Shown here: piece by piece, positions 3,465 through 59,470 of the stretch
Layout of the letters: each line of letters begins with the position of its first letter
Position numbering within the stretch: the first letter of the stretch is position 1
Assembly: GCA_018674305.1 (NCBI GenBank)
Contig: JABHAL010000015.1
Coordinates: 128,532-192,531, forward strand
DNA from: Candidatus Falkowbacteria bacterium
Lineage (GTDB): Bacteria > Patescibacteriota > Patescibacteriia > UBA11705 > JABHMO01
DNA length: 64,000 nucleotides
Direction of reading: 5' to 3'
Translations under genes and position numbers: made by a program
Notes under the pieces: model-generated
What the model was told of the DNA's origin: nothing
What the model saw: the letters and a program-made list of their open reading frames with translations, nothing else
Database searches by the model: none

Positions 3465-3516
3465 TCTTAAAGAACAACAACTGTTTTATTTTTCAATAAA
3501 ACAGTTGTCAGCCTTT

Positions 3517-3553
3517 AAAAAATTAGGGCGAAGCAAAGTGCTTGACTTCGCCC
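3517..3553 (-). terminator. Intrinsic terminator (GGGCGAAG-loop-CTTCGCCC + T6 on minus strand) after paralog 3580..4695
   Basis: 8-bp GC stem followed by U-run on minus strand. A second 12-bp hairpin lies at 3477-3510. Confidence 0.6.
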
Positions 3554-3579
3554 ATGTTAGACTTTCAAAACAAACACCG

Positions 3580-4695: not shown

Positions 4696-4761
4696 GACAA
4701 ACCTCCGTAATTTTAAAGATCAATCTTTATTCTAAATTATTTAGAACAAGGATTAAGCTTG

Positions 4762-4798
4762 AAAAAATTAGGGCGAAGCAAAGTGCTTGACTTCGCCC
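4762..4798 (-). terminator. Intrinsic terminator, same sequence as 3526-3553
   Basis: GGGCGAAGCAAAGTGCTTGACTTCGCCC + A-run on plus strand (U-run on minus strand). Confidence 0.6.
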
Positions 4799-4823
4799 AG
4801 GTTTTGTAGTTTACATCTTGAAT

Positions 4824-6319: not shown

Positions 6320-7810
6320 TTACTGAAAAGTGTATTCCATATAATGATCATTAGCATCCTTGCCACTGATTGTCACTTCAATCCAACGAAGGTTAGAATT
6401 ACCTCCCTTCAATCCCTTGTAATATGATGTCAAATCGATCATAAATCGTGCATTTTGAGTATGATGCTTCAAATTTGCTTCAAGGTACACTTCTGGTGCC
6501 AATTTCCAAGAGAAAACAATAGGAGTCCTTTGCTTATATTGAGCTGGGGACTCTCCTTTGCTTTTCAACACCCAGGCATTCATTGTTGCATCAGTGTATG
6601 TAACTGAGACACCGTGCTTTTCCTCACCTCTGAAATAAAGCCGGCAATTTGAAGACAGAAAACCGGGCCAATTCCACTCAATATTTCGAAAAACAGGGTA
6701 TGCCACAACATTTCTAGTTTTACTGGCAGCTGGATTATTTTTATTCCAGCCAGCTGTAACAATTTCGTAATGCTTTCTATCTTTTTCTAGTTGGGCTGCT
6801 TTTTTAGCCTTCTCTTTGGCTTTTTTTTCTGCTCTTTTTTTAGCAACCCTTTCTTTTCGTAATTCAGCCTTAGCATCTTCAGCTTTTCTGTTTTCTAGAT
6901 GTACCCTTCGTTTTTCCTGTCGGGCAAATTTATTTCTTTCGGCCTCTAGACTTTTTTCTGCTGAAACCCTTTTTCGTGCTTCTTCTTTTGCTTTTTTCTC
7001 TGCAACCAATCTTTCACGTCGCTCTTTTTCAATCTTTAATTTCAGGTTTTGCTTTTTTTCTTTCTCTAACCTGATTTGTTCATTTTTTTTTTGCAACTTC
7101 TCTCTTTCTTTCCTTACAATTTCACCAGTAATGACCTGAAGCTCGCCTCCCCAGGGACAATACCCAGAGGATGCGTAAAAATGAACCGTTCCTTCAGGAT
7201 CAGTACAGTAGAAAAAAAGTGCCTTTCCCGTGGCTGGACTAACAAATCCAGACTCTACTCTCTCAAGTGTGACTTCGTAATTCTTGGTAGTAGCAAACTG
7301 CTTACCCTTCTCATATTTTTCAATGAGCTCGGGGGAACAACGCTGTGCCTGCTGACCAAACTTATCATAAAGAGCCTGTTCAAAAACCTGAATTTCACCA
7401 GTCAAAGGATTGACTGTGCAAAACTTAGCCATAGCCGGTCCATCAATAGGATGAACCAAGGAGTCCCCTTGAATCAGGAACATTGCCAAGGAATGCAATG
7501 CAAAAAATGCTGCAATGGTGATCATCCCCGCAAGCCGTCGATCTTTCTTCCAGCTAAAGAAAAGCCGGAAAATTGCGTACCACAGAGGTACCGCAACAAC
7601 TATTCCAATTGCCTGGGCCAGATAAGGATTCATTCCGAATCCGGAAATCTTGCTGACCACGTACGGATAAACCATCAAAAAACCAAAAATCGAAGCATAT
7701 TTAACAAGACTGATCAAAATCAGAATTGCCAATGCCACAAAAAACAACCCGAGAAACAGTTTAGCTGTCCTCTTCATAACACACCTCCAATGGTTATTTT
7801 CAACGAACAA
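6320..7810 (-). CDS. Paralog-family membrane protein (496 aa) with K/E-rich coiled-coil insert and a distinct soluble C-terminal domain
   Basis: Conserved N-module (FGFLMVYPY, FFSWKKDRR, HSLAMF, FFYCTD...GYCPWGG), then ~120 aa EKEKK/ERRER low-complexity helix and a non-TM C-terminal domain. Confidence 0.7.
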   Translation of the reverse strand: MFVENNHWRCVMKRTAKLFLGLFFVALAILILISLVKYASIFGFLMVYPYVVSKISGFGMNPYLAQAIGIVVAVPLWYAIFRLFFSWKKDRRLAGMITIAAFFALHSLAMFLIQGDSLVHPIDGPAMAKFCTVNPLTGEIQVFEQALYDKFGQQAQRCSPELIEKYEKGKQFATTKNYEVTLERVESGFVSPATGKALFFYCTDPEGTVHFYASSGYCPWGGELQVITGEIVRKEREKLQKKNEQIRLEKEKKQNLKLKIEKERRERLVAEKKAKEEARKRVSAEKSLEAERNKFARQEKRRVHLENRKAEDAKAELRKERVAKKRAEKKAKEKAKKAAQLEKDRKHYEIVTAGWNKNNPAASKTRNVVAYPVFRNIEWNWPGFLSSNCRLYFRGEEKHGVSVTYTDATMNAWVLKSKGESPAQYKQRTPIVFSWKLAPEVYLEANLKHHTQNARFMIDLTSYYKGLKGGNSNLRWIEVTISGKDANDHYMEYTFQ

Positions 7811-7850
7811 TATTTAATCTTAAATCATTAAAATCAAATATCGTTTTTTG

Positions 7851-7891
7851 AAAAAAATTAGGGGCGAAAGCAAAGTTGTTCACTTCGCCCC
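7851..7891 (-). terminator. Intrinsic terminator (GGGGCGAA...TTCGCCCC + A7)
   Basis: Same hairpin family, located after 7908..8786. Confidence 0.55.
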
Positions 7892-8901: not shown

Positions 8902-8974
8902 TTTCGTCTCCTCTAAATTTTAGTCAATGAACAATATTTATTTTCAAATTATTAAAAACAAATATTATTGATTG

Positions 8975-9008
8975 AAAAAAGTTGGGGCAGGCAAGCTAAG
9001 CCTACCCC
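8975..9008 (-). terminator. Intrinsic terminator variant (GGGGCAGGC-loop-GCCTACCCC + A6)
   Basis: Hairpin followed by U-run on minus strand. Confidence 0.5.
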
Positions 9009-9016
9009 GTTGGTTA

Positions 9017-10165
9017 TTAAAATTCATCAAAAATCTTTATACCTAAATGAAAAACGCCAATAGTCAATAGTACGTAAATTGGGATCGAAAGAACAACCAT
9101 GACAACTATATGCAATTGTGCCCAAATGAGCAGGGACAATATATCAGCAGTCAATACACTTATTACTGCTAAAAAAGGAAGCACAATAAACGCACCAACC
9201 ATAGTTGGCCCATTCCCGTCTGACAGTCCAACACATAACGTAATAATAGAAATAATTACTGACAGAACGAAGAAAATCCCCGCAATAATATTTGTTTTTT
9301 TGTGATTTCTAAATTCCCAAAACCACGCAGTATAACTTATTTGCATTTCAGATTCAGCAGGGACAACTTCAACTTCCTGTGTTGTTCCCTCGAACGTTGG
9401 AAACTCCAGTTCAAATGGGACATAAACTGACTCTTGATGCACCAAAATTTCTTTATTGGCTATTTTTGCCACAAGAACAGAACTGACAGGCAAAAGTTGA
9501 CCTCCCCAAGGACAATATCCTTCAGAAGAAAAAAAGTGTGCTTTTTTCTCAGAGTCAAAACAATAGAAGAACAATGGTTTTCCAGTTGCCGGACTTATGA
9601 AACCATCCTGCACCCTAGAAAAAGAAACTTCCTTGCTTGTTCCATCAGTAAAAGTTTTTTCTCTCTCGTACTTTTCAATCAATTCCGGTGAGCACCTTTC
9701 CGCTTTATTACCAAACTGATCATAGATAGACTGTTCAAATGTTTGAATTTCACCTGTCAAAGGATTCACAGTACAAAATTTCGCCATTGCGGGACCATCA
9801 AATGGATGAACCAAGGAATCACCTTGCAATAAAAACATAGAGAATGAATGCAAAGCGAAAAAAGCTACAATTGTAATCATGCCAGCCATTCTGCGATCCT
9901 TTTTCCAACTAAACAAAAGTCGGAAAACTGCATACCAAATTGGAATGGCTACAACAATACCGATTCCTTGCGCCAAATATGAATTCATCCCAAAACCTGT
10001 AATCTTTGTAACTACGTAGGGATAAATAAGCAAAAAACCAAAAATAGTTGCGTATTTCAGTAAACTGACAATCATTAGGATTGCCAAGCTGATAAAAATG
10101 ACTCCAAAAATTATTCCTGCTTTTCTCTTCATGTCATCCTCCACAGCGTTGGTTTCAATGAACAA
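9017..10165 (-). CDS. Paralog-family membrane protein (382 aa); closest sister of 6320..7810 in the N-module
   Basis: MKRKAGIIFGVIFISLAILMIVSLLKYATIFGFLLIYPY... FFYCFD..GYCPWGG; C-terminal TM bundle. Confidence 0.7.
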   Translation of the reverse strand: MFIETNAVEDDMKRKAGIIFGVIFISLAILMIVSLLKYATIFGFLLIYPYVVTKITGFGMNSYLAQGIGIVVAIPIWYAVFRLLFSWKKDRRMAGMITIVAFFALHSFSMFLLQGDSLVHPFDGPAMAKFCTVNPLTGEIQTFEQSIYDQFGNKAERCSPELIEKYEREKTFTDGTSKEVSFSRVQDGFISPATGKPLFFYCFDSEKKAHFFSSEGYCPWGGQLLPVSSVLVAKIANKEILVHQESVYVPFELEFPTFEGTTQEVEVVPAESEMQISYTAWFWEFRNHKKTNIIAGIFFVLSVIISIITLCVGLSDGNGPTMVGAFIVLPFLAVISVLTADILSLLIWAQLHIVVMVVLSIPIYVLLTIGVFHLGIKIFDEF

Positions 10166-10204
10166 TATTTACTTTTAAATTTTTTAAAAATAAGTATTGT
10201 TATT

Positions 10205-10237
10205 GAAAATTGAGGGCAAGGTGCAAGCACCTTGCCC
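10205..10237 (-). terminator. Intrinsic terminator (GGGCAAGGTG-CAAG-CACCTTGCCC)
   Basis: 10-bp GC stem; lies between small ORF 10244..10489 and paralog 9017..10165. Confidence 0.5.
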
Positions 10238-14905: not shown

Positions 14906-15862
14906 CTACTTATCCCAACAAAAATTATTCCCGAAATGGCCAAACTCAGCAGTTTGTTCAAATTGAGGCTTTTTCAACTCTAATAAAGTAATAATCCCTT
15001 TAGGAGTTAAATCATAACCTTGTACATTCTCTTTGCGACCATCAATTTCCACAGTCGCCATTACCGGTTCAGCTACTCCAATTGAATAAGCTAAATGGCA
15101 AATAACTTCTTTGGCATTATTTTTTTGTAAATAATCAACAGCAATTTTTCTGGCCATGTAAGCAGCGGAACGATCGACTTTGGACGGATCCTTGCCTGAA
15201 AATGCACCACCTCCGATAGGAATTCGTGGACCATAGTTATCCACAATCAATTTCCGACCAGTTACACCAGCATCTGCCTCAAATCCTCCTTGTGACCAAT
15301 CACCAGCTGGATTAACATAAATTTTAAGGTTTTCACTTACATTTTTGTCTTTTAACCATTCTTCAACCAGCCCCTTCATTTCTTCTGCTCGAGCATGCTG
15401 AAAGCTGGCCACGACAGTTGAAATTAAATTGTTTTCTAATGTAATTTGAGTTTTGCCATCAGTTTTGTATTTAGAAAATAATACTCGACACAAATCACGT
15501 GAAAGCTTTACCTCCAAAGGAATTAATTCCGGAGTTTCACTGCAAGCATATCCAACCATGATTCCCTGGTCACCAGCACCACCCGGATCAACTCCTCGGG
15601 CAATATCTGGAGATTGCTGAACTAAATTGACACTAACTTGATATTGATCTCCAGCAATTCGTTTAGCAATTTTTTCCGCATCAAAAACCGCACCGGAAGT
15701 AATCTCTCCGGTAATTGTAATAACTCCATGCCCCCCCATTGTCTCTACTGCAACCCGTGAATGTGGGTCTTGCGATAAACAAATATCTAAAATAGCATCG
15801 GAAACACGATCACAAATTTTGTCTGGGTGCATTGGTGAAACTGACTCTGCTGTACGTAACAT
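14906..15862 (-). CDS. metK: S-adenosylmethionine synthetase (compact form, 318 aa)
   Basis: HPDKICDRVSDAILD, GGGAFSGKDPSKVDRSAAY hallmark motifs. Confidence 0.9.
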   Translation of the reverse strand: MLRTAESVSPMHPDKICDRVSDAILDICLSQDPHSRVAVETMGGHGVITITGEITSGAVFDAEKIAKRIAGDQYQVSVNLVQQSPDIARGVDPGGAGDQGIMVGYACSETPELIPLEVKLSRDLCRVLFSKYKTDGKTQITLENNLISTVVASFQHARAEEMKGLVEEWLKDKNVSENLKIYVNPAGDWSQGGFEADAGVTGRKLIVDNYGPRIPIGGGAFSGKDPSKVDRSAAYMARKIAVDYLQKNNAKEVICHLAYSIGVAEPVMATVEIDGRKENVQGYDLTPKGIITLLELKKPQFEQTAEFGHFGNNFCWDK

Positions 15863-16118
15863 AAATTCTTTGGCCGCGATGTAACCAGAAATAGTTTTTG
15901 GTTTTGTTGCAGCTTAATACTTAAATAAAAAATACTCTTTCATCACGAAAAAGTATAATAATTGAATAATTATTTATCTTTCCCGTGCTGGGCTAGAATT
16001 GACACCTTCTTGAATTACCTTCAAGGGTTGTCGACAGGTCATCGGGCTATATCCCTCACTGTACTCTTGATAAATGGTTAAATTGTATATATATAATATT
16101 ACACTAAAATTAATTTTA

Positions 16119-36051: not shown

Positions 36052-36378
36052 TGGCTCTGCGAGTCGGACTCGAACCGACGACCTACTGGTTACACTTATC
36101 CAAGGATTTCTCCAGGGCGTGGACTATATCATCACCATAGCAAATGCTTTAGGCGCGAGGCGCTTCCACCTTGATGTAAAAATCAAAGTGTACTCCTAAA
36201 AAGGATAGTCTCTGAACCTTCCCCAACTAATGTTAGGGCTTGGCTGCGGATTAGCATATCACAATTGACTTAGCCTTCCCGACAATTCACCTCGTTATTC
36301 ACCCCAATGTTTCCAAAGGGGGCTGCGTTATATTTTTGTGTACACAGCCAGTTGCTCTACCAACTGAGCTATCGCAGA
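36052..36378 (-). tRNA. tRNA-Asn(GUU) (alternative reading Thr-UGU) interrupted in the anticodon loop by a 251-nt group I intron (36093..36343); exons 36344..36378 (nt 1-35) and 36052..36092 (nt 36-76 incl. CCA)
   Basis: Exons give a perfect cloverleaf: acceptor TCTGCGA/TCGCAGA, D-arm GCTC-AGTTGGTA-GAGC, anticodon stem ACTGG/CCAGT with loop CUGU|UAA, T-arm GTCGG-TTCGAGT-CCGAC, G73, CCA. Intron has Q AATCCGCAGC (exact), R GTTCAGAGACTA (exact), S ATGATATAGTCC, P AATTGTCGGGAA in canonical order. P1 pairs GGCUGU (exon) with GCAGCC (IGS) giving U.G at the splice site; omega-G precedes 3' exon. Confidence 0.8.
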
Positions 36379-46394: not shown

Positions 46395-47426
46395 TTATGG
46401 ATATATCAGAGTAAGTTCATTGTTTGTCCATTTATAATATCGAGAAGAAAATCGTTCCCAGACTGCCATATTACGTTTACGATTTTCATTATCTATCCGA
46501 TAAAGATCTAATGTGCTGGACGGATTAACGATAAGTAAATTACTTTCTAGCTGAAAATCTATTCCTAACTCAGATACAAATTCATTTGTTTGATAAATTA
46601 TTCCTGTAATATTATCAATTATTACAAAACGTTGGCAATTTGCCCCACAACCGTAGTCAACAACAGTATAATGCCCGGCGAAATTCGGGCTACCATCATA
46701 AGCATTTGTAAGAATGGTTTTAAATTTTATTCCGACAGGATGGCTATTAAGATCAAGCGGAGAATAAGATGAACTAGCGGCCGTCTCTGATACTGGATAT
46801 TTTTCAAAAGTGGGTAATGAGCTTAAATGTTCTATTTTTTCTACAACTACATTTGGAATACACACTTGATTTCCATTACGGTCCTTTTGATCATAATAAT
46901 CACAATCTGCTCCGTTAAAACTACCTGTAATTCGGTAAATGCCACTCCAATCAACACCGTCACTTTTCGTAACACCATATCTCTTCATCATATAATTTAC
47001 CCAATTTCCAGAAAAATTTTGAGTTATTTGGTTATTAATTTCAAAAAGCTCCTCTTCCTTTGTGTAATCCGGGGCGCCCCAAAACCATTCATAATAATCC
47101 CATATGCTCGCTGGATGGTCTTCGTCAAATATCCAAAACTTTATTCCATCGATTTGAGTCTTGTCAGATATTACGCCGTTCCACTCCACCCGTCCTCCTT
47201 TCGTATTGCTGTTTTGAGCATTAATAGCAAATTCATAGGAAACCTTTTGGTTAGGATCGAGATTGTGTGTCTGAATGTTTGTTTCTAATACCTTTTCGGT
47301 TTTTTCTACTCCCACATCTGCGCTTTTTTTTCTTGTGAATAGTCCTTGATCAAGGCCAATAATAAATATTGCAATTACTAATAAAACTGCGGTTACTATT
47401 AAAATTTGAAGTCGTTCATTTTTCAT
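46395..47426 (-). CDS. Secreted/membrane-anchored hypothetical protein (343 aa)
   Basis: N-terminal TM; Trp/Tyr-rich. Confidence 0.4.
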   Translation of the reverse strand: MKNERLQILIVTAVLLVIAIFIIGLDQGLFTRKKSADVGVEKTEKVLETNIQTHNLDPNQKVSYEFAINAQNSNTKGGRVEWNGVISDKTQIDGIKFWIFDEDHPASIWDYYEWFWGAPDYTKEEELFEINNQITQNFSGNWVNYMMKRYGVTKSDGVDWSGIYRITGSFNGADCDYYDQKDRNGNQVCIPNVVVEKIEHLSSLPTFEKYPVSETAASSSYSPLDLNSHPVGIKFKTILTNAYDGSPNFAGHYTVVDYGCGANCQRFVIIDNITGIIYQTNEFVSELGIDFQLESNLLIVNPSSTLDLYRIDNENRKRNMAVWERFSSRYYKWTNNELTLIYP

Positions 47427-47500
47427 AGAATTTTTGCTAAGTTTTCAGATAATCTCATTGTAACACTCCTGTCAAAAACAAAAAAATGTGCAAAGTGAAC

Positions 47501-47585
47501 ACATTTTTTATTCAAATTTCCTGATTCAGTTGTAATTTTGCGGAGACGTCAGTGGCTCTTTTTTAGGAGTGAGCTGGGGATAAGT
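47501..47585. repeat. Direct repeat copy A (85 bp; 84/85 identical to 48918..49002), flanking the toxin-antitoxin cassette
   Basis: ACATTTTTTATTCAAATTTCCTGATTCAGTTGTAATTTTGCGGAGACGTCAGTGGCTCTTTTTTAGGAGTGAGCTGGGGATAAGT occurs twice; similarity extends ~20 bp further upstream imperfectly. Confidence 0.8.
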
Positions 47586-47604
47586 GTATTATATCCTCAC
47601 AAAT

Positions 47605-47958
47605 TCAAATACCAAAATGTTTTTTTAAGTATAATCTTATTTCATGCATAATATTATTCCCGGCATGACCGATGACGCCGCAGAAACGACTATAATCACA
47701 GGAAGCAATGTTGTAAACCTTAATTAGAGAATTGCTTTTTAAATTATTTTCATTATCAGCATGAATAATTATATCATCATCAACTTTATTCGTTAAATTA
47801 CCTGTCAAAGGTATTACTGTTACTAAATTTGATCTGCTGATCTGCTTATTTGTTTGAATAACCACAGCCGGTCTTTTATCCTGGAATTCATGGCCGATAC
47901 TGGGATCAAACTGCGTCCAAACAATATCACCAAATTCTATTTGTCCTTTTTTGAGCAT
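47605..47958 (-). CDS. MazF/PemK-family type II toxin (endoribonuclease)
   Basis: GDIVWTQFDPSIGHEFQDKRPAVVIQ matches the PemK/MazF N-terminal signature; overlaps upstream antitoxin gene by 22 nt. Confidence 0.75.
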   Translation of the reverse strand: MLKKGQIEFGDIVWTQFDPSIGHEFQDKRPAVVIQTNKQISRSNLVTVIPLTGNLTNKVDDDIIIHADNENNLKSNSLIKVYNIASCDYSRFCGVIGHAGNNIMHEIRLYLKKHFGI

Positions 47959-48800
47959 AAATTTTCATAATAATTATATTCTTCTTTTGATATAGGGCCA
48001 AGATGCTTCAGGGAATCTACGCCAGAAGCATTTTGCCATGCTTGCCAATGATCAACCTGTGCGTATGGCGTTTCTCGGTCAACAGTTAATTCATAAGGAA
48101 TGACTTCATTTTTTCCCATAACCTTCCAGGGAATATCTTCATGAACATATTGCTCAATCTGGGCCGCTGACATATCTGACAATTTAGCAATAACATCATC
48201 AATTACATTTTTTTCTTTGATTGAAAAATTATCCAGATTAAAATCACCCAACGCGACATATCTTTTTTGCTTCATATCATGATATTCTTGAATGAAAATT
48301 TTAATCCGGTTTTCAGTTTCCATTTTCTTAATCACGGTTCGGAATTGAATTGACTGAGGTACCGGACCAAACTGCAATTTAACATAACTCAGGCCAATAA
48401 TCGGTTTGCCCCATTTTTCATAACTATTAAAATCAATAAAGTACAACAATTTATACAAAACAGTTTCTCCGACATTTGGCTTACCGCCACATTTATTTAA
48501 AACATAAAGTAAAACCTGCTGTAATTTCTCAGGATTGAATTCTATATCTTTATTTACTTCTACATCAGAAGGACTAGTTTCATTCTTGTTTATTTCCGAA
48601 ACAAGTAGCTCGTCAATTTTCACGCCAAAAAAAGTGGCGATTTTAGATAATTCAAATACTTCTACTCCCCTGTTTCCGGTTTCAATTGCCGACATGGCTG
48701 GACGAGAGATTCCAACATATTTAGCCAGTTTTGCCTGACTAACCTGTCTTTCTTCGCGCAGACTTTTAATTGTTTGACCCAATTGTTGTTTATTTATCAT
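47937..48800 (-). CDS. Antitoxin-like protein: N-terminal XRE-family HTH + C-terminal DUF4065 (Panacea/SocA-like) domain
   Basis: QAKLAKYVGISRPAMSAIETG HTH; LYKLLYFIDFNSYEKWGKPIIGLSYVKLQFGPVP DUF4065-like; own promoter TTGACA-N17-TATAAT at ~48812-48840 (minus strand). Confidence 0.65.
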   Translation of the reverse strand: MINKQQLGQTIKSLREERQVSQAKLAKYVGISRPAMSAIETGNRGVEVFELSKIATFFGVKIDELLVSEINKNETSPSDVEVNKDIEFNPEKLQQVLLYVLNKCGGKPNVGETVLYKLLYFIDFNSYEKWGKPIIGLSYVKLQFGPVPQSIQFRTVIKKMETENRIKIFIQEYHDMKQKRYVALGDFNLDNFSIKEKNVIDDVIAKLSDMSAAQIEQYVHEDIPWKVMGKNEVIPYELTVDRETPYAQVDHWQAWQNASGVDSLKHLGPISKEEYNYYENLCSKKDK

Positions 48801-48917
48801 ATATCTGAATTATAACACTGCTCAATATACTGTCAAGTGTATATCTTCAATGACAAGATACCTGACAACGGTTAGATGTTTATATTAATTTAAAAACAAA
48901 AAATGCGTCAAAATGGC

Positions 48918-49002
48918 ACATTTTTTATTCAAATTTCCTGATTCAGTTGTAATTTTGCGGAGACGTCAGTGGCCCTTTTTTAGGAGTGAGCTGGGGATAA
49001 GT
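48918..49002. repeat. Direct repeat copy B (85 bp), upstream flank of the TA cassette
   Basis: See copy A. Confidence 0.8.
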
Positions 49003-49029
49003 CGGCATTTAAAGACAAAACTGATAATT

Positions 49030-49326
49030 TTATATATATTTTATTACATCAGTTTTTTTATATCTATTCATACCAAAGTTATTGGAACTAGGAATCTTTG
49101 ATATTTCTTTATCAGTAAGATTAAACATCTTTTTGATTTGATACTTTGACATGGTTTGATTTTTATATTCTCTTCTATCTTCTTTTATATCTTCTAACCC
49201 TTTCCCAGAATCACAAACCCAGGCAGAAGCAAATGTTTTTTGACAAGAAGGACAATGGCTTACGCAAGCATAAAAGGCGTTAATTTCTTCATGGCAATGA
49301 GGACATTTTATAAAGTTTACAACCAT
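49030..49326 (-). CDS. Zinc-ribbon hypothetical protein (98 aa)
   Basis: CPHC...CVSHCPSC...C. Confidence 0.4.
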   Translation of the reverse strand: MVVNFIKCPHCHEEINAFYACVSHCPSCQKTFASAWVCDSGKGLEDIKEDRREYKNQTMSKYQIKKMFNLTDKEISKIPSSNNFGMNRYKKTDVIKYI

Positions 49327-49353
49327 ACTTTAGTTCACTTCTACTTATTAGAA

Positions 49354-50838
49354 TTACAATTTCTTCAAAAATCTATAAATTTCCACCATTGCGAATGTAT
49401 CCAACTTACAATATTTGAGCAAGTCACTGGCGATCTGTTTTTTTTCTTCAGGTGAGCTATCGCCAAACACCATTCTTTCCCAGCGTTCGACTGCTTGGTC
49501 TCCTTTTTGGATTCCTAAGGTCCTGTAGGTAAGTTCAGGGACAATAACTGGAAGAACGTTTTTTATACTCGAACTTCCTTTGAACCGAGCATCAACATAA
49601 TAATTATTAGAAAAGATTGTCATGAGGTCAAACATTCGGTCGTTCAGGCCAACAAGAAATTCAGCATAGTCAGGATGGATTTCTGCAAGTTTATCGTTTC
49701 GTTGTGATTCATATGATTTGTACCAAGCGATGACACTACCCGTATCATCAAAATCTTCTCTCATTCTTTTGATAAGTGGCAAAGTAAGATCACTTTCTGG
49801 GTCGGTGATAAGATATTCCTTGTGGTCCAGTGTTCCATCTTCATGCAATATATGTAGTGAGTATTGAAATGGTACTTGTTCATATGCGCCAAAATCATTA
49901 AACCTTGGGATTGCGCTTGAGTAGCCTTCATAATCGAAGAAATGGATTGGGAAGGTCAAACTAGCAAGCTCATTTCTTACGGCAGTGGTGTCAACAATTG
50001 GATTTCCAAGCATATACGCGTCGTATTGGAACTTTTTCGTACCTTTAAGTTTTTCTGGGTTATCTATTTCTTCCAGCTTATATATTCCTCGATCTATCCA
50101 GTCATAAAACAGTTTTTTACTACCACCGATTCTATTGATATCATGGACAGAATATTCTGGGACTTTTGGGTTGGAATAAGCAAATGTAGTACATTGTGAA
50201 TTTCTGCCACGGTACAAACATTCACAGCCTTTTTCTTCTTTCATATTCAAATAGATCTTGATATCGTTCATTTGTTCCTGAACACCCGCCTCGGCCTCTA
50301 GAACCTCGTCTGTTAGCTCGGCAATGATAAACAGCTCGTCATAGTCAACTTTTCCCTGTTTCCGGTATTCACCGTTCAGATGAATTACGCCTGCTTTCAC
50401 AATATTCAGACCGTCATTCTCAATAACAATTTTCTGGAATGCGAGGTCGTTGATATGATGGTGCGGAATCTCCCTTTTCACGTCGTTGGTTGCTTTTACT
50501 TCATAGAGCTCCCAGCCTTTCAAAACATTATTATAACGAAGGATATCTGCCTGGACGAAAAAGTCATTATACTGGAATGCACCCTGGAACAGGACTGGTG
50601 GGTTTTTCTCGAGTATTTTTTTTGTAACTGGTACGGCATTGACACCAATAATATCAATCAGTTCTCCACCAGGAAAAAGATTTCTGGCTGCTTCGTCTGC
50701 TATATTCCCCTCTTCGATAATTTTCTTTTCAAATTCTGATAATTCGACATCGTCAAAAAGCTCTGGCTTGTGTTTGTTTAGCCAGAGATTCTTTTTGCAG
50801 TATGTGTATTCGAGGTAGTCGGTTTTTGTGATGTGCAT
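49354..50838 (-). CDS. DUF2779-like protein (predicted RecB/Cas4-like PD-(D/E)XK nuclease family)
   Basis: N-terminal MHITKTDYLEYTYCKKNLWL resembles the conserved SKS...qCpkrLWL start of DUF2779 proteins; family assignment from memory, moderate. Confidence 0.45.
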   Translation of the reverse strand: MHITKTDYLEYTYCKKNLWLNKHKPELFDDVELSEFEKKIIEEGNIADEAARNLFPGGELIDIIGVNAVPVTKKILEKNPPVLFQGAFQYNDFFVQADILRYNNVLKGWELYEVKATNDVKREIPHHHINDLAFQKIVIENDGLNIVKAGVIHLNGEYRKQGKVDYDELFIIAELTDEVLEAEAGVQEQMNDIKIYLNMKEEKGCECLYRGRNSQCTTFAYSNPKVPEYSVHDINRIGGSKKLFYDWIDRGIYKLEEIDNPEKLKGTKKFQYDAYMLGNPIVDTTAVRNELASLTFPIHFFDYEGYSSAIPRFNDFGAYEQVPFQYSLHILHEDGTLDHKEYLITDPESDLTLPLIKRMREDFDDTGSVIAWYKSYESQRNDKLAEIHPDYAEFLVGLNDRMFDLMTIFSNNYYVDARFKGSSSIKNVLPVIVPELTYRTLGIQKGDQAVERWERMVFGDSSPEEKKQIASDLLKYCKLDTFAMVEIYRFLKKL

Positions 50839-50934
50839 TTTTTTGTGCTTGAGTTTTTAGATATCGATAATAGTGCAAATATTTTTTGGGAGTGGTAAAG
50901 AGACTTGTCTTCCGAGGTTAGATGAATGTCCAAC

Positions 50935-52251
50935 TTATTTTTCTAAATTTTTTAAACCAATTTTTGGATTCTGATAATCTAGCCCATCTGGCGTCAATTT
51001 AATTGATTCCATAAAATATTTTTTTGAATTTTCTTTGTCGTTAAGTTCAGCAAAAATAACGCCCATATTGTTTAATATCGTACATACAGTTTTGTCTCGT
51101 TTTAAATATTTTTCTCCAGCTGAAAAATATTCTGGATTTATTGTTCTAGTAGTTTCCGTATCTTGAACAGTATTTTCAAGTTTTCTTGCGACTTTACAAG
51201 CTTCTTTAATAAAATGATCATAAACTTGATTATATATTCCCATAGCCTCAACTAATTTACCCTCTTTTTTGTATTTTTGTGCTTGATTAACTTTGTTTTG
51301 TAAATCATCATCAGAATTAACAAGAACACCCTCCTCAATAACAAAACCGACAGGAGCCTTTCTTGATAATCTTTTATTGTAAGGTGAAATATATAATTTT
51401 CCAAGATCTTTATTATGTTCAGTAAAAATATTATAAATGTCTATTAACCCATCCATTTTCATTACACTTGATTCAATCGATCCAGCTCTTTTAAATTTAA
51501 TTTTACTTCCATCAACGGTTTTTAGACTTTCTAAATACACGTCGCTTGCCAAAATTCCGTTCACAGGGATTGGATTGGTTTCACAGCGACCAAATTCGCC
51601 ATATGCGACAGGAATTTCATCTTCGTCATAGCCTAACCCTGTTAAGCCAAAACCAGTCTCTATAAATTTAATAGCTTTTTCATCTGTTGATCCAAGCATT
51701 AGAAAAGCAGTTACAAGCTTCAATTCATTATCGTCTAAAATATCACCAAAATTCAATTTCATTGACTCATACAATCGATTTTTGTTTATTGAAAGCATAC
51801 CCTTCCCCTTCAAGAGCATCTTTTGTGCTGTTTCAAAGTTTATTTTACCATTTAAAAGTTCAATAATTTCATTTGTTTGATCTTGAATTTGTTTTTTACC
51901 ACCAGGAAAGTGGGTCTTGGACATCTTTTCAAAAACTTCTGTGATCTCTGATTTATTTGTTTTCTTCTTTATGATGTCCTGTTTCCGAATAATTCTTCTC
52001 GCAGATACATATATTCTAAGAGGCCAAATAAAAAAAATTCTGATAATCCCATTGAGTCGGGCTGCGCCACGTTCATTCACGTAAAGTGGAGATTCTATAT
52101 TTGCCTTAAGGTCAAATTCTCGAGAATTAAAAAGCAAAGATAATATGCGATAGCGCATATCCCAGAACACAAGCAACAACCCTCCGGCTAAATAGGTTAG
52201 GATTATAATTATAATTTTAATCATATTTTCATTTTTTATTCCTACCTTCAA
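50935..52251 (-). CDS. Membrane-anchored hypothetical protein (438 aa) with C-terminal TPR-like helical repeats
   Basis: N-terminal TM; C-terminal AMGIYNQVYDHF...ILNNMGVIFAELNDKENSKKYFMESIKL. Confidence 0.4.
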   Translation of the reverse strand: MKVGIKNENMIKIIIIILTYLAGGLLLVFWDMRYRILSLLFNSREFDLKANIESPLYVNERGAARLNGIIRIFFIWPLRIYVSARRIIRKQDIIKKKTNKSEITEVFEKMSKTHFPGGKKQIQDQTNEIIELLNGKINFETAQKMLLKGKGMLSINKNRLYESMKLNFGDILDDNELKLVTAFLMLGSTDEKAIKFIETGFGLTGLGYDEDEIPVAYGEFGRCETNPIPVNGILASDVYLESLKTVDGSKIKFKRAGSIESSVMKMDGLIDIYNIFTEHNKDLGKLYISPYNKRLSRKAPVGFVIEEGVLVNSDDDLQNKVNQAQKYKKEGKLVEAMGIYNQVYDHFIKEACKVARKLENTVQDTETTRTINPEYFSAGEKYLKRDKTVCTILNNMGVIFAELNDKENSKKYFMESIKLTPDGLDYQNPKIGLKNLEK

Positions 52252-52341
52252 TCTACCACATTTAAGCTAAAATTACTATGACAATATCAAAAAAACAGGC
52301 TCATTTGAGCATAGGTCTGCCTTAATATATCCATTACAACA

Positions 52342-52854
52342 TTATAACTCAAAAATAATCTTTGCCTCAGCCATAAGTTTTTTGGTTAATGAAAGATTCC
52401 ATGCTCTCATTGTTTTGTGCCATTTCCGAAATTCCAAAAACTTCTCCCATGTTAATTCAATGATTAAAACAGGCTCAAGCGCTTTACTTATTGAAACAAT
52501 AATAACATATTCAAACTTTTTGTCTGGCAAAATAGTATCTTCTACATTTCCCACATTATAAAAAACACCTGTTAGTCGGCCTGGTTGGGTGATTGTTTTA
52601 ATACTATATCTTTCTCCCTTTCGACTTAACGCATCAACGTTTTGTGTTCCCTCGGGGGCAGCTTGTAAATTTGAATAACCTGGAATATTATTATATGCCT
52701 CGATAGCTAAAAATTCACCCCTTTCTCCAGTAATATTTTCTGTTCTTACTAGTCCTCTCTCTTTTAATTGAACCTTCGCAAACGCAAACAGCTCCCAGAC
52801 ATTATGATTATCGAGGGTTTCTAGTTTTTTTATTAAATTTTTGGATAATGGCAT
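52342..52854 (-). CDS. Hypothetical protein (170 aa)
   Basis: ORF only. Confidence 0.4.
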   Translation of the reverse strand: MPLSKNLIKKLETLDNHNVWELFAFAKVQLKERGLVRTENITGERGEFLAIEAYNNIPGYSNLQAAPEGTQNVDALSRKGERYSIKTITQPGRLTGVFYNVGNVEDTILPDKKFEYVIIVSISKALEPVLIIELTWEKFLEFRKWHKTMRAWNLSLTKKLMAEAKIIFEL

Positions 52855-52861
52855 ATTTTAT

Positions 52862-53158
52862 TTTTTCACAAATGCTTTACTACCTCTACGGCAATTGCCC
52901 GTATCAAATTAACTGGAACGCTGTTCCCAAATTGCTTATACGCTTGTGTGTCAGAAACAGGTATAACAAATGTTTCCGGATAACCTTGTAGCCTTGCAGC
53001 TTCTCTTGGTGTTAACTTTCTAGGATTTTTTCCTATTTGCGCAACCAGAATCTACCGGTCTTTTTTTTAATAAAACTTTTTGCTATGTGCGATACGGCTT
53101 CATTAGTATGGGACCAATCTGGTTCTTGAATTTTGTTTTTACTTTTTTGATTAAACAT
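52862..53158 (-). pseudogene. Remnant of a DNA (cytosine-5)-methyltransferase (C-terminal motifs IX/X only, frameshifted)
   Basis: Minus-strand translation gives ...[49 protein letters not shown] (classic C5-MTase C-terminus), preceded by out-of-frame MFNQKSKNK... segment; no motifs I-VIII present. Confidence 0.6.
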
Positions 53159-53238
53159 ACTTAATATTACTATAATAACTTCCAACATCCTTCATCAAAA
53201 CCATTTTTATGAAACATTTTTTTAATATAGCTTCTGTC

Positions 53239-54009
53239 CTAACTTTCTTTTATCCTATATTTACCTGAGTTTACTAACTTCACACTATTATAATCATCCT
53301 CATTTTCGAATTTAAATTGCCAAATAGAATAACTATTTTCTTTAATATCTCGCTCAAAAAACAAAATAATAACTTTCTTTTCTGTACAAACTTGCCATTG
53401 CCTAAATGGATAATAAAGTTGTCTTATGATCGTATTGCTAACGCCAGGCCTTTTTGCCTCAACCAAAACAATTTGGTTTTCTCCCTCATAACCAGCATCT
53501 ACTTCTGTCTGGACACTCGCTGTTTTAATCTCTTGACTCCCAACTTTAAAATGAAATTCCGGCGTGTATTTTCGACCACGAATTGTCAGAACAAGTGTCG
53601 GATCGTCCATAAAAGTTCTGATTAAACTTGAGGCATAGGCAAAATCTAGATGTTGCATCTCAGAGTCTCCTACATCTGAGGAATCCAAGTGAAATTGTAA
53701 TTTAGACGAGTATATTTCAATTTCTTTATTTATTTCTGGCATATCCAGATAACCCTCCCCTTTTATAATATTATATATTCCATTTTTAACGGGAAGAAGA
53801 AATAGATTGTTTTTTTGAAAAATTTTCGGACGGGACTCTCTTGTGTCCTGCTTACAAAGGATTCGAACCTCCTTTTCTGCAGTTTTTTTAAATCTTTGAC
53901 ATGAAACTTTAATTTGCGGTGCGGTTAATACAAATGGTTCTTTATCAAAGTCGTGCTCATTAATGTTATAATCACGAAATATTTTTGCCCATGATTTGCT
54001 GTTTGCCAT
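53239..54009 (-). CDS. Putative type II restriction endonuclease (PD-(D/E)XK)
   Basis: EVDAGYEGENQIVLVEAKR (D...E.K) motif; starts 2 nt after the MTase stop. Confidence 0.5.
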   Translation of the reverse strand: MANSKSWAKIFRDYNINEHDFDKEPFVLTAPQIKVSCQRFKKTAEKEVRILCKQDTRESRPKIFQKNNLFLLPVKNGIYNIIKGEGYLDMPEINKEIEIYSSKLQFHLDSSDVGDSEMQHLDFAYASSLIRTFMDDPTLVLTIRGRKYTPEFHFKVGSQEIKTASVQTEVDAGYEGENQIVLVEAKRPGVSNTIIRQLYYPFRQWQVCTEKKVIILFFERDIKENSYSIWQFKFENEDDYNSVKLVNSGKYRIKES

Positions 54010-54011
54010 AA

Positions 54012-54818
54012 TTATAATAGTTTACGATTTTTAGATTTCAATATTTCATTGAATCTTTGCTTTGACAAATCCAAATATTCTTTTTCCATATCAAGCCCAA
54101 CAAAGTGACGTCCATGCTCATACGCGGCAATCCCAGTTGTTGAACTGCCCGTAAAAGGGTCAAGAATTAAATCTCCTTTATTTGTACTTGCAATAACAAT
54201 TCTTTTTAGCAAATCCAAAGATTTTTGTGTAGGATGTTTGCCAAAGTTTTTCTCTGATTTTTTTGGAGTATTAATTGACCAAACAGATCTCATTTGCAGA
54301 CCAGGCTTCTTCATCTGATCTTCCGGCCAATCACCATTTTTCATTTCCTGATAATTAAAGGTGTGCTTCGCCTTTTTCTCTTTTCTCGCCCAAACCAATG
54401 TTTCGTGACTAGCAGTGAAAAATCTACAACTTAAATTTGGTGATGCGTTTGGCTTAAACCATGAAATATCATTTAAAACATGATAGCCGGCCAACTGCAA
54501 TGCAAAGCCACACTGATAGACAGAATGATAGGTTCCGCTAACCCAAATAGTACCATTTGGTTTCAATACCCTTCGACATGCGTTTATCCAATCTAAATGA
54601 AAATTAAAGTTTTCTTGGTGTCCTTTACTTAAATCCCAGTCCCCCTTTTTCACACTCACCATTTTACCATTCTGACAGGTAAAACTACCGCTGGAAAGAA
54701 AATATGGCGGATCGGCAAAAATCATATCAAAAATATCTGGTGGGAACTCCTTCAGAATTTCCATTGAGTTTCCATGATATAACTTGAATTTAGGTTTTTG
54801 AAAGTATGGTTTTTTCAT
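54012..54818 (-). CDS. DNA methyltransferase, beta-class N6-adenine/N4-cytosine (DPPY)
   Basis: Motif IV FADPPY precedes motif I ILDPFTGSSTTG (beta-class order). Confidence 0.8.
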   Translation of the reverse strand: MKKPYFQKPKFKLYHGNSMEILKEFPPDIFDMIFADPPYFLSSGSFTCQNGKMVSVKKGDWDLSKGHQENFNFHLDWINACRRVLKPNGTIWVSGTYHSVYQCGFALQLAGYHVLNDISWFKPNASPNLSCRFFTASHETLVWARKEKKAKHTFNYQEMKNGDWPEDQMKKPGLQMRSVWSINTPKKSEKNFGKHPTQKSLDLLKRIVIASTNKGDLILDPFTGSSTTGIAAYEHGRHFVGLDMEKEYLDLSKQRFNEILKSKNRKLL

Positions 54819-55013
54819 ATATATGACACTATTTTAACATGTCTGCTAAAATTTTTCAACAAAATCTCAACCGCACTCCCCTAATTTTACACAAAAGGAT
54901 AATCAATAAAAAAACGCCCTCTCAGGCAGTTGGGAAAAATAATTACATAAAGTGGAACCGATAGCATCTGAATGGAGCCGCCCGTCTCTCAGTAATGTCA
55001 AAATATTAATAGG

Positions 55014-55622
55014 TCAGACAATATATCCATCTTTTTTTAGCTTTTGTTGCATTAACTTTTTTTCTTCTACTGTAGGATGCAAAAAAGTCCCTCCTCCAAT
55101 AAATTTATACCAAAACCATTCATTATTAAACTTGTTTTTAATTTCTAAATAATCTTTGTATTGAATTTTTATAGCTATTAATACTGGGGCTTCCTTACTT
55201 AATTTATGAGACGAAAAAATATTGCCTGATGATGTGCTTTTTTTATCTTGATATAATTTATTTGGCGATTCAAACCTATTTAATTCTACTTTGTCATTAG
55301 GATACATATAAAGGGTTGTGATACTTACATCACTAGCAGGGTGTTTTCCTTGATTATGAAAAACAATATTATATGGGTATTTAAATTTTAGTCCATCCTC
55401 AAATCCCCCTTCTTCAATTCTTACTTCTGTCTTGTCAATACTAATAAGTGGCCTTTCAAAATGTCGTGTGAATCGAGTTGTTTTAAAATGGATGAAAACT
55501 GCTAAAACAAGACTTAAAAAACCAATAATCGAAGGTGCCAAATCTTTTATTATCTCAATATAAGTACTCTCGGTTAGAGTACAAAAAACCGACGGAGCCG
55601 ATTGTATAAAAGTTTCTGTCAT
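55014..55622 (-). CDS. Membrane-anchored hypothetical protein (202 aa)
   Basis: N-terminal TM. Confidence 0.4.
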   Translation of the reverse strand: MTETFIQSAPSVFCTLTESTYIEIIKDLAPSIIGFLSLVLAVFIHFKTTRFTRHFERPLISIDKTEVRIEEGGFEDGLKFKYPYNIVFHNQGKHPASDVSITTLYMYPNDKVELNRFESPNKLYQDKKSTSSGNIFSSHKLSKEAPVLIAIKIQYKDYLEIKNKFNNEWFWYKFIGGGTFLHPTVEEKKLMQQKLKKDGYIV

Positions 55623-55710
55623 AAATAAATATTATACTTTTATTCTAGCAAGCTCACCATCTAAAGTCAATCAAAAAAACGCCCAAGTTTGGACGTTTTG
55701 TGTTTGTGTG

Positions 55711-57636
55711 TTAGTTACATGCAGTCATGTCAAAACCAAATATCTGTGTGTTTTTCAATTTAATCAGCACACTACAAGTTCCAACATCTACAAACAATTG
55801 ATTATTTGCCAAATAAAGATATGTCAACCAAAGCAAACCAGCTATAGGAGTAACATCACTTACTTGATTATTCTCAATACTAAGCGTTTTTAAAGTTGTT
55901 AAACTTTCTAACCCCACTAGACTTGAAACTTGGTTGTTGTTAAGCCAAAGTTGAAGTAAAGAAGTTAATCCCGCCAAAGGAGTAAGATCAGTGACTTGAT
56001 TATTACTAAAACGTAAATATTTCAGAGTAACTAATCCAGCTAAAGGTGTAAGGTCAGAAACCTGGTTATTGTTAATGTTTATGCCTTCCAGTGAGGGTAA
56101 CCCTGACAATGGAGTTAAATCAGAAACTTGGTTATTCATAAGAGTTAGGCCCCTCAACAAAATTAATTCAGCCAAAGGAGTAAGGTCCGAGACGAGATTG
56201 TCTTCTAACCAAAGATTATCTAATGAAATTAACCCTACTAAAGGAGTTAAATCAGAAATTTGATTCTCATAAAGAATGAGTTGCCATAGAGAAGTTAGCC
56301 CTTCCAAACCATTAAGATTGGATATCTGGTTTTCCTGAAGTTGAAGAGAGGTTAACAATGAAAGCTCTGCTAAAGGAGTTAAATCAAATATTTGATTCTC
56401 CTGGAGTTGCAAAAGTTCCAATGACGTTAACTCCATTAAAGGAGCAATATCAGAGATAAAATTATCCTTGGCCCTAAGCCAGTTTAACGAAGTCAATCCG
56501 GATAAGGGAGTAAGGTCCGAGATAAAATTTTCCTGAATATCTAGATGCGTCAAAGTAACCAAGCTACTTAAAGGACCAATATCAACAATCCCAATTTCAT
56601 CCATTTCCAATTCTTTTAGGGATAAAAAGTGTTCAATTCCTCCCAAATCAGTAATGGGATTGTGCGACAACTTCAGCACTTCAATATTTTTCACATCATT
56701 TTGAGTTAAATACGGAAACTGATTTTCATCAAGCTTATTGATTTTTTTCCGCACAACATATTCGAAGTCTGGATCTGCAAATTCGATAATACTACTTATG
56801 CAATTACCTTCTTCCTCCATATACCAATCATCACAGATCACGTTACAACCTGGATATGGCCCAATGATTCCATTTTCAATTTCCTGCACTTCGCAAACTG
56901 GAAGTTCCACCACCTCAAATCCCACCTCAAAACTATCCACATCATCCCCATCACTCACCAAGAAAGTAACTTCATACTCTCCCGCCTGATCAAATCCAGG
57001 CGTCCATGAAAAAGTTGCACATGGCGCAGGTGGAAAAACAAGACAAGGTTCATCAGGATTTGGATCAAAGATAAATCCTTCCGGCGCATTTTCAACTGAG
57101 AACACTAAATCATCATCGTCATCATCATACGCCCAAAGATGACCCTCAATCAATTCACCTTCATTGACGATTTCCTCATTAAACGCAATCCACAACTCCG
57201 GCGGATTATTCACATACTCGCATACACCTTCAAGGCAGTAATGCTTCGCGCTGTATTCACTACAATTCTTGTACCACCGCTTGTAAGTCTGATTCGCCGA
57301 GCAACCGCCCTCGATAACATACGTTGTTCCAAACCAGTCAAGACACCAGTCAGCTTTACCAACTGGACTTGTATCAGTCGTGACAATGCCGAACTCTTTG
57401 AACGACATACCACCATCAGAATCCTCACACCAGCCCTGGACTGCATTTTGTGCCTGAGCACTGCAATCCCACGAGCAATTCATGTAGTTTGCCCAATCAG
57501 CGTCAAGCAAGAGCTGATAGCAACTGTCTTTCCAACATTTGTAAAAGAATTTTTGTTGGTAATAGTTTAGAGCCATTGCATTTGTTGCAAAAGATACGAC
57601 AACGAGGCCTAAAATTACTGTGATTACCTTTTTCAT
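55711..57636 (-). CDS. Secreted leucine-rich repeat protein (internalin-like 22-residue LRRs, ~14 repeats) with Cys-rich N-terminal domain
   Basis: Signal peptide; repeats L..L..L..L.L..NQ(V/I)SDLTPL. Confidence 0.75.
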   Translation of the reverse strand: MKKVITVILGLVVVSFATNAMALNYYQQKFFYKCWKDSCYQLLLDADWANYMNCSWDCSAQAQNAVQGWCEDSDGGMSFKEFGIVTTDTSPVGKADWCLDWFGTTYVIEGGCSANQTYKRWYKNCSEYSAKHYCLEGVCEYVNNPPELWIAFNEEIVNEGELIEGHLWAYDDDDDDLVFSVENAPEGFIFDPNPDEPCLVFPPAPCATFSWTPGFDQAGEYEVTFLVSDGDDVDSFEVGFEVVELPVCEVQEIENGIIGPYPGCNVICDDWYMEEEGNCISSIIEFADPDFEYVVRKKINKLDENQFPYLTQNDVKNIEVLKLSHNPITDLGGIEHFLSLKELEMDEIGIVDIGPLSSLVTLTHLDIQENFISDLTPLSGLTSLNWLRAKDNFISDIAPLMELTSLELLQLQENQIFDLTPLAELSLLTSLQLQENQISNLNGLEGLTSLWQLILYENQISDLTPLVGLISLDNLWLEDNLVSDLTPLAELILLRGLTLMNNQVSDLTPLSGLPSLEGININNNQVSDLTPLAGLVTLKYLRFSNNQVTDLTPLAGLTSLLQLWLNNNQVSSLVGLESLTTLKTLSIENNQVSDVTPIAGLLWLTYLYLANNQLFVDVGTCSVLIKLKNTQIFGFDMTACN

Positions 57637-57916
57637 GACATTCCTCCAGTCAAATTGTCAACGTTCATTTCTAACTCAATCGTAACTTAAATTAACTGGT
57701 TAGTCTAGCATTAATTGTCAATTTTGTCAATTGTGAAATATGAATTATGCGATATGTATTATGGAAATTAATTGTGGAAATAAAAAAACGTCCCAATCGA
57801 GACGCCAACATACCTACGATAAGTGAACCTGCCGAAGGCAGGTTTTGTGTTTATTTAGTTTAGCCTATAAAAATCTGCACCTTCCTTATATAATTTTACA
57901 CAAACGTAGCCAGCAC

Positions 57917-59297: not shown

Positions 59298-59470
59298 ATC
59301 AGTCTCCTCTATTGCAAATTATCAATTTGATCGTATCTAAATCGAACTCTTTATTCTAGCATTTATTGTAAATTTTGTCAATTGTGAAATGTCGAGTAAG
59401 TATAATGTATTATGGAGAAACAAAAAATGCCCGTCCAACAGGCATTCACATTTGAACATACTTTTTAATT

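Follow-up and report, generated by a model that had tools for sequence, protein, structure and literature searches.

A toxin–antitoxin (TA) pair of known type lies between near-identical copies of one terminator-bearing intergenic segment in the genome of an uncultured marine member of the Falkowbacteria (CPR). This arrangement raises the question of how the pair came to be enclosed in this way, and whether the repeats that surround it serve its movement at present. The stretch of DNA that was analysed, referred to here as the window, comprises 64,000 nucleotides. A previous sequence-only reading had taken the direct repeats as an indication of insertion or excision by site-specific or homologous recombination, that is, of a mobile TA cassette or an attC-like module. 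It had also regarded the pairing of a MazF-type toxin with a Panacea-type antitoxin as non-canonical. In the following, the anatomy of the locus, the identity of the TA pair, the nature of the repeat and its distribution in the natural population are considered in turn.

According to its NCBI name, the source of the antitoxin is Candidatus Falkowbacteria. With the exact proteins as queries, many TA-carrying contigs were retrieved from marine metagenomes, those of Saanich Inlet included (JGI, ENA MEGAHIT k141, ENA SPAdes, and Logan assemblies), as well as one NCBI metagenome-assembled genome (MAG) carrying the TA pair, GCA_018665965.1. Among the source metagenomes are 3300000155, 3300022888, and ERZ27237556. 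The host population, named Candidatus Falkowbacteria (Patescibacteria), belongs to a marine oxygen-minimum zone.

Anatomy of the repeats and of their terminator-like ends

All the genes of the locus are located on the minus strand, and the features described in this work are collected in Table 1. Following this strand, the 98-aa gene is separated by a spacer of 27 nt from copy R of the repeat, which ends in a hairpin and T-run and is succeeded by the TA promoter. The antitoxin and toxin genes come next, then a spacer of 19 nt, copy L with its own hairpin and T-run, an extended −10-like element recognized by eye (TGTTACAAT), and finally the 343-aa gene. Each copy is therefore found at a short distance past a minus-strand stop codon, carries a hairpin and T-run at its end, and is followed by a promoter.

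Table 1. Features of the TA locus (positions are those of the window).
Feature	Position	Strand	Remarks
343-aa gene	46395..47426	-	present/absent among strains; indel starts just past the promoter following copy L
Block common to all haplotypes	47451..49333	-	ORFan, copy R, TA pair, copy L, hairpin
A/T-rich hairpin with flanking A-/T-runs, 3' end of copy L	47481..47512	-	fold -10.2 kcal/mol, z -1.8
Direct repeat copy L, 86-nt core	47500..47585	-	starts 19 nt past toxin stop; extended 47475-47585
PemK/MazF-family toxin gene, 117 aa	47605..47958	-	Pfam PemK_toxin 3.5e-19
Antitoxin gene, 287 aa	47937..48800	-	N-terminal XRE-type HTH_3 1.4e-11 and SocA_Panacea/DUF4065 1e-21
TA promoter	48809..48836	-	TTGACA-16-TATAAT, 12/12, TG extension; sole perfect site for the operon (promoter scan)
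Inverted repeat ATATAC-N8-GTATAT	48825-48844		overlaps -35 box
A/T-rich hairpin with T-run, 3' end of copy R	48895..48926	-	fold -11.9 kcal/mol, z -3.6
Direct repeat copy R, 86-nt core	48917..49002	-	starts 27 nt past ORFan stop; extended 48892-49002
98-aa ORFan gene	49030..49326	-	N-terminal CxxC...CxxC motif; always immediately upstream of the TA pair; in invariant block

Pairwise alignment of the two cores revealed a single mismatch in 86 nt (T at 47557 versus C at 48974) and a start-to-start spacing of 1417 nt, in agreement with the 85-bp repeats with one mismatch, placed about 1.4 kb apart, that had been read from the sequence. A 38-mer taken from the core has two exact matches in the 64-kb window, while none is expected according to 100 shuffles. 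The similarity continues beyond the core. Without gaps, the extended repeat reaches 111 nt with 90% identity and is the longest direct repeat around the finding; when gaps are allowed, the identity is ~94% across 112–113 aligned positions. The differences between copies L and R are not evenly spread, since three mismatches and three gaps cluster in ~27 nt of the hairpin loop versus one mismatch in the 86-nt core. The boundaries of the repeat are sharp and enclose exactly one self-contained promoter-to-stop operon: the segment between the copies (1.3 kb, about 47586-48891) holds the TA promoter and both genes of the pair.

The hairpin and T-run that had been noticed at each copy were also recovered by folding (Table 1). 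In the alignment, the loop of the copy R hairpin is unlike that of copy L and the stem is preserved by means of a G-U pair. Both hairpins are weak and contain few G-C pairs, and neither of them was called by the terminator scan, which is demanding in G+C. They can be described as intrinsic-terminator-like, and they would probably act as terminators of the transcripts that precede them.

The gene upstream of copy R encodes a protein of 98 amino acids for which the homology search returned no homologue except itself. Matches to Zn-ribbon families (Pfam and others) were weak and sub-threshold, and its AlphaFold2 model was unusable (pLDDT 51).

The two-copy structure is highly reproducible. Copies L and R, with the identical single difference, were present in all the TA-spanning loci (25/25). 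These loci represent ~20 distinct contigs, given that some contigs were fetched repeatedly, and they derive from MEGAHIT k141, SPAdes and JGI assemblies plus the NCBI MAG, so that at least three assembly pipelines reproduce the structure. In addition, one short-k-mer Logan contig terminates inside copy L, as is expected at a true repeat. Because both copies recur unchanged across contigs and pipelines, an assembly artefact, which had been named beforehand as one outcome that would undo the proposal, is ruled out.

The toxin–antitoxin operon and its relatives

The toxin matches the Pfam profile PF02452 along its full length (profile positions 2-108 of 109). Further matches were obtained with a MazF-like family of PHROGs (4.8e-17) and, weakly, with MazF/PemK-like chains of the PDB (~7e-4). 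In the antitoxin, the SocA_Panacea domain (PF13274) covers residues 115-226 with a score above the gathering threshold. Sequence searches of PHROGs, NCBIfam, and the PDB concur with the Pfam assignments, at lower significance. The Pfam matches of the antitoxin comprise HTH families and Panacea only, and the MazE/PemI families are absent from them. The two genes overlap by 22 nt (47937-47958). In all these respects, namely a MazF/PemK toxin, an HTH-DUF4065 antitoxin, the 22-nt overlap, and a consensus promoter of its own, the initial description of the operon was accurate. Judging from these sequence features, the locus is a type II PanA/PanT-class TA operon, in which a predicted HTH-Panacea antitoxin is followed by a predicted PemK/MazF endoribonuclease toxin. 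The inverted repeat that overlaps the −35 box of the promoter (Table 1) may serve as the operator recognized by the HTH domain of the antitoxin, and the antitoxin presumably autoregulates the operon.

Homologues of the antitoxin are abundant: 4791 proteins with the same HTH plus Panacea architecture were found at E<=1e-10, those that bear an organism name belonging mostly to Patescibacteria, and the nearest sampled relative is 62% identical. In the five homologous loci that were sampled, all from other Patescibacteria (52–62% identity), a PemK gene is located directly downstream of the HTH-Panacea gene (5/5). These loci have five different neighbourhoods, and three of the five adjoin restriction-modification or other defence genes. 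PemK has been reported among the toxin domains that adjoin Panacea antitoxins; two MazF-like PanT toxins have been verified, and 343 PanA antitoxins have been found to carry an HTH at the N-terminus (Kurata et al., 2022, PNAS, PMC8832971). As this pairing had already been reported (Kurata et al., 2022) and recurs in every sampled locus, the view that it is non-canonical has to be abandoned.

The locus shares with the PanA/PanT family a Panacea/DUF4065 antitoxin with an N-terminal HTH, a PemK/MazF toxin, and an overlapping bicistron in which the antitoxin comes first. Nonetheless, it differs from the family in its flanking direct repeats and its CPR host, and it is known from sequence alone. 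With MazEF/PemIK it has in common a toxin of the same family, whereas its antitoxin is of the HTH-Panacea type and not of the AbrB/SpoVT type of MazE/PemI. Neither flanking direct repeats nor any core-like sequence were detected in the four homologous TA loci with retrievable DNA. Since the homologous loci lack the repeats, these come from the insertion site and not from the TA family.

Nature and distribution of the repeat

The core of the repeat has few properties of its own. Its secondary structure does not exceed that of shuffled sequences on either strand (z +0.52 and +0.71). Rfam gave no match at the repeat at the gathering threshold, and at E<=10 returned only noise. ARAGORN predicted no tRNA or tmRNA at the locus, the only call of aragorn -i being a tRNA-Thr at 36 kb. 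Terminal inverted repeats and inverted pairs are absent from the core, and inspection by eye did not reveal in it the R''/R' cores of attC sites (the GTTRRRY/RYYYAAC pair). The core thus resembles ordinary intergenic DNA, since it lacks a fold of its own, an Rfam or tRNA signal, and a conserved open reading frame. Regarding the latter, a 21-codon ATG frame and a 62-aa plus-strand frame can be read from the sequence at copy R only. The repeat was rejected as a conserved small open reading frame, as the ATG frames of copy R have no start in copy L.

The distribution of the repeat is equally restricted. A third copy, even a diverged one, was not found in the 64-kb window with relaxed blastn, nor were further copies found in either version of the adjacent island. 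A 20-mer of the core had no match in viral contigs (IMG/VR) or in the genomes representing each GTDB species (one per species). In the metagenome collection it matched the TA contig of this population and, by chance, two unrelated sequences, one of them a contig with 50% G+C. Plasmid and phage collections, searched at blastn sensitivity, gave no match to the repeat. Consequently, the search for other copies that had been recommended to check the cassette proposal found none outside this locus in these collections. In the window, the fetched flanks and the collections searched, the repeat is private to this locus.

A dispersed element of the REP/MITE type, the other outcome that had been foreseen as fatal to the proposal, shares with the repeat only an intergenic location. 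However, even relaxed searches of the 64 kb recover exactly two copies, the repeat has neither terminal inverted repeats nor a significant fold, and it is absent outside this locus from all the collections searched, while the ~20 distinct contigs from k=141 MEGAHIT, SPAdes, and JGI agree on it. A dispersed element or an artefact is accordingly regarded as extremely unlikely.

The comparison with integrons deserves a separate comment. Integron cassettes are small units bounded by similar sequences of ~60–140 bp, and TA pairs are frequent cargo in chromosomal integrons. The unit described here is likewise small, enclosed between similar sequences, and loaded with a TA pair. In contrast to an integron cassette, the unit contains a promoter for its genes and is accompanied by neither an IntI nor an array of cassettes; its repeat, which has neither the palindrome nor the fold of attC, occurs only here. 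Domains of integrases, resolvases, transposases, or recombinases (Pfam) were not detected among the predicted genes of the window. The attC-like, MITE/REP, and tRNA-att interpretations are removed by the negative outcome of the searches for structure, dispersal, and recombinases. The suggestion of an attC-like or site-specific module also lacks support in that no other cassette in either version of the adjacent island carries the repeat.

The preservation of the two copies allows a different explanation, according to which the 86-nt core would be a functional cis-element and its copies would be held by selection or gene conversion. Such an element might act in RNA, as a 3'-UTR element or a 3'-UTR-derived small RNA that the transcripts of the ORFan and of the toxin have in common, or in DNA, as a site bound by a protein at the flanks of the operon. 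In its favor, the core accumulates one difference versus six in the adjacent hairpin-loop segment of ~27 nt; neither copy is polymorphic in any spanning locus; and the promoter scan detected a promoter-like site (47615->47588, 10/12) that ends just upstream of copy L. However, the same scan found no counterpart at an equal distance before copy R, and the core combines a fold no better than shuffled with the lack of an Rfam match. Moreover, nothing similar flanks the four homologous TA loci mentioned above, and the core contains nothing that matches the candidate operator at the TA promoter. As for the invariance of the repeat, it is not special because the whole block of 1.9 kb around it is invariant. 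A functional cis-element is considered, on balance, quite improbable.

A bolder reading, to which only a slight probability can be given, would see in the core either the recognition site of an undescribed cassette-capture/excision system of Patescibacteria or a new 3'-UTR RNA element coupled to MazF-type toxins. Working in trans and without a classical integrase in the vicinity, the former system would deposit addiction or defence cassettes close to dnaA, at the boundary of a hypervariable defence island. The sole hints in this direction are the clean core beside a diverged hairpin loop and the position at the island boundary.

Population structure and the origin of the duplication

Comparison of the contigs of this population shows a mosaic in which the TA locus is the stable part. 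The block common to all haplotypes (Table 1) is essentially invariant over its 1.9 kb, the variation consisting of single-nucleotide polymorphisms at 49012 and 48889 and three differences at the junction with the 343-aa gene. Both flanks of the block are swapped among haplotypes. Upstream, two unrelated versions of an island, of at least 6–10 kb, have been found. The version present in the window contains LRR, MTase, DUF6996/6997, TPR, and DUF2779 genes, and the alternative version encodes DnaA_C, a MORC-like ATPase, an MTase, an SNF2/DEAD helicase, HARE-HTH, and DUF2779 proteins together with two small genes. A relationship between the 98-aa protein and a 163-aa Zn-ribbon protein of the alternative island was considered and rejected, as the two have no similarity. 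The presence or absence of the 343-aa gene is independent of the upstream island version. The downstream core occurs in two forms, with ~98% or ~99.8% identity to the window.

The limits of the segment shared by all haplotypes (47451 and 49333) are not at the repeats, which means that the unit kept or exchanged in the population is larger than the repeat-delimited cassette. The block may represent either a recent sweep or a clonal frame between imported flanks. Sites devoid of the cassette were also sought: the pattern of an empty site (L-type hairpin, core, and R-type flank) had no match in the metagenome_contigs and genome_contigs collections, so this check of the cassette proposal came back negative as well. 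Likewise, where the contig flank was sufficient, no TA-less context was found for an identical 98-aa gene or for an identical downstream FtsZ-like gene, the closest relative recovered for the latter (84% identity) being a 1.1-kb fragment without the upstream region. Nothing shows current mobility of the cassette, and the best reading is that the insertion has become fixed, at the margin of a hypervariable and defence-like island.

These observations bear directly on the notion of an active mobile TA cassette, either an integron-like attC module or a non-autonomous integrative element, that would be moved by a site-specific recombinase supplied in trans. In its favor are the long direct repeats around a self-contained unit and the position of the locus beside a hypervariable island that occurs with two alternative gene sets. 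Against it, the core has no hairpin-forming symmetry and lies outside any tRNA or tmRNA gene, the predicted genes of the window include no integrase, and no other cassette with the repeat is known from the searches. Furthermore, an empty site was not found and the boundaries of haplotype exchange do not fall at the repeats. An active cassette is thus deemed very unlikely. Of the earlier proposal of insertion or excision by recombination, the past event is retained, the natural reading being a rearrangement with duplication of ~111 nt around the operon, and mobility at the present time is not.

A closer precedent is provided by restriction-modification complexes. The 'insertion with long target duplication' of these complexes, described by Kobayashi's group, leaves repeats of 45–420 bp and involves no mobility genes, by a mechanism that is unknown (Furuta et al., 2010, PMC2853133; see also Nobusato et al., 2000, as cited in Furuta et al., 2010). 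The TA locus resembles these cases in that it is an addiction-type module, has no mobility gene, and is flanked by repeats (86–113 bp) far longer than the target duplications of transposons. The repeats exceed 30 bp, mobility genes are absent nearby, and there are two copies only, as in the definition of the long target duplication. On the other hand, the cargo is a TA pair, and the restriction-modification cases are recognized from a sister genome in which the site is empty and the repeated sequence is present once (Furuta et al., 2010), whereas no such site was found for the TA locus in the collections searched. The sole relevant analogue found in the literature search is an engineered one, a mazF counter-selection cassette placed between terminator repeats for its pop-out (PMC4773802).

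By comparison with the restriction-modification complexes, the repeats are most likely the scar of the insertion of the TA pair. The specific proposal, for which the chances are judged to be about even, is that the TA operon was inserted with duplication of a target 3'-UTR/terminator module. This module would consist of a short 3' untranslated stretch and the A/T-rich terminator-like hairpin, and would originally have followed the 98-aa ORFan gene. The 1.3-kb segment would have been inserted in a single event, with the module duplicated at either side; an identical arrangement is expected if a circular DNA had integrated by a Campbell-type single crossover within ~100 bp of homology. From then on, ORFan and toxin gene alike would have a terminator copy downstream of them, with transcription of the TA pair starting at its own promoter. 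The polarity of the event would be that of a target duplication, rather than that of a cassette bringing its own copy. The repeats, left behind as a scar, could serve homologous loop-out passively but would not be an active recombination site. Loop-out by homologous recombination would leave a circle or tandem junction with the structure GCGTCAAAATGGCACATTTTTTATT-N60-GCTGGGGATAAGTGTATTATATCCT. Loss of the cassette would be counter-selected by activation of the toxin, and the absence of empty sites is consistent with such counter-selection. It is important to note that the clustering of the differences between copies L and R in the hairpin loop is not predicted by a simple neutral scar and argues against this explanation, as do the weakness of the hairpins and the failure to find a single-copy empty site in the collections searched.

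The same repeats might have arisen in the opposite order. The TA operon might have come without repeats, and the terminator module might have been copied secondarily, by ectopic gene conversion or a small segmental duplication. The operon would then have gained the 3' module of its neighbour or donated its own, and the repeats would be uninformative on the entry of the cassette. The window offers some precedent for this order of events. A 46-nt terminator-like hairpin is duplicated with 96% identity (3513-3558 and 4758-4803) and an 87-nt upstream segment with 78% identity (57679-57765 and 59330-59416); because of these other duplicated intergenic modules, it is clear that copying of intergenic modules occurs in this genome. 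Nevertheless, at least some of these modules go with tandem paralogous genes, unlike the TA locus, and a single insertion is a simpler explanation for sharp boundaries around one promoter-to-stop operon. Secondary copying of the module is for these reasons rated as unlikely, with a probability that is low but not negligible.

Regardless of the order of events, the type of the TA pair is known and the repeat gives no sign of a new class of element. In the natural population, the TA block represents an invariant anchor between swapped segments of the island. If insertion with target duplication is the correct explanation, an addiction module would have entered the chromosome with a long target duplication and without a mobility gene; apparently, no TA pair of a CPR bacterium had been noted as such a case before. 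This would provide modest support for the idea that addiction modules move by means of host recombination and not of dedicated recombinases.

Genes and islands bordering the toxin–antitoxin pair

The PemK/MazF toxin and HTH-Panacea antitoxin genes are accompanied by a 98-aa ORFan whose linkage to the pair is constant and whose sequence is invariant across this marine Falkowbacteria population. Among 5.8 billion proteins this ORFan matched only itself, with zero homologues, and its AlphaFold2 model was unusable (pLDDT 51). The defence-like island upstream of the block formed by these genes exists in the population in two versions, unrelated to each other, which diverge 7 nt ahead of the ATG of the 98-aa gene. 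The alternative version, found in two fetched loci (L002 and L013), contains DnaA_C, MORC-like ATPase, MTase, SNF2/DEAD helicase, HARE-HTH and DUF2779(502) genes, together with genes of 126 and 163 aa.

On the other side of the pair, the presence or absence of a 343-aa gene varies between strains. This indel begins directly past the promoter located 3' of copy L, one of the two direct repeats around the pair, so that the same promoter would drive either the 343-aa gene or the gene of a short and divergent FtsZ/tubulin-like protein. The closest relatives of the latter outside the population share 41-45% identity with it, except for one fragment at 84%; of the 41-45% relatives, the three whose source is named come from Patescibacteria or carry an FtsZ annotation. 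The FtsZ-like gene belongs to a conserved block that also includes Macro, NUDIX and radical SAM genes.

Coordinates of the features (window positions unless a locus is named)
Feature	Position	Strand	Details
98-aa ORFan	49030-49326	minus	N-terminus CxxC...CxxC; C-terminus basic
343-aa gene	46395-47426	minus	predicted hydrophobic N-terminal segment
FtsZ/tubulin-like, 291 aa	45469-46344	minus	Tubulin 8.8e-09; FtsZ_C 1.3e-05
Island, window version	49333-57700		LRR, N6_N4 MTase, DUF6996/6997, TPR, DUF2779(494) genes
Island, alternative version	L002 1-9470; L013 1-5994
tRNA-Thr(UGU) gene	36052-36378	minus	251-nt group I intron
Intron_gpI (Rfam)	36100-36353		80.5 bits
SAM (S-box) riboswitch	15971-16076	minus	68.3 bits
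S-adenosylmethionine synthetase gene	14906-15862	minus
G+C-rich hairpin, 46 nt	3513-3558; 4758-4803		2 copies, 96% identity
Upstream segment, 87 nt	57679-57765; 59330-59416		2 copies, 78%
64-nt family	7800-7863; 8924-8987; 10155-10218		3 copies

RNA elements

The anticodon loop of the tRNA-Thr(UGU) gene is split by its intron, and the gene, overlooked by ARAGORN at default settings, was detected by aragorn -i. An 18-nt sequence comprising the leader and the 5' end of this tRNA, ATTATTCTGCGATAGCTC, has a second copy about 60 nt upstream. The riboswitch stands immediately 5' of the synthetase gene.

Duplicated intergenic modules

The 2.4-10.2 kb region contains the 46-nt hairpin pair and paralogue-like coding repeats. 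With the upstream segment and the 64-nt family also present in more than one copy, the copying of intergenic modules seems to be common in this Falkowbacteria genome.
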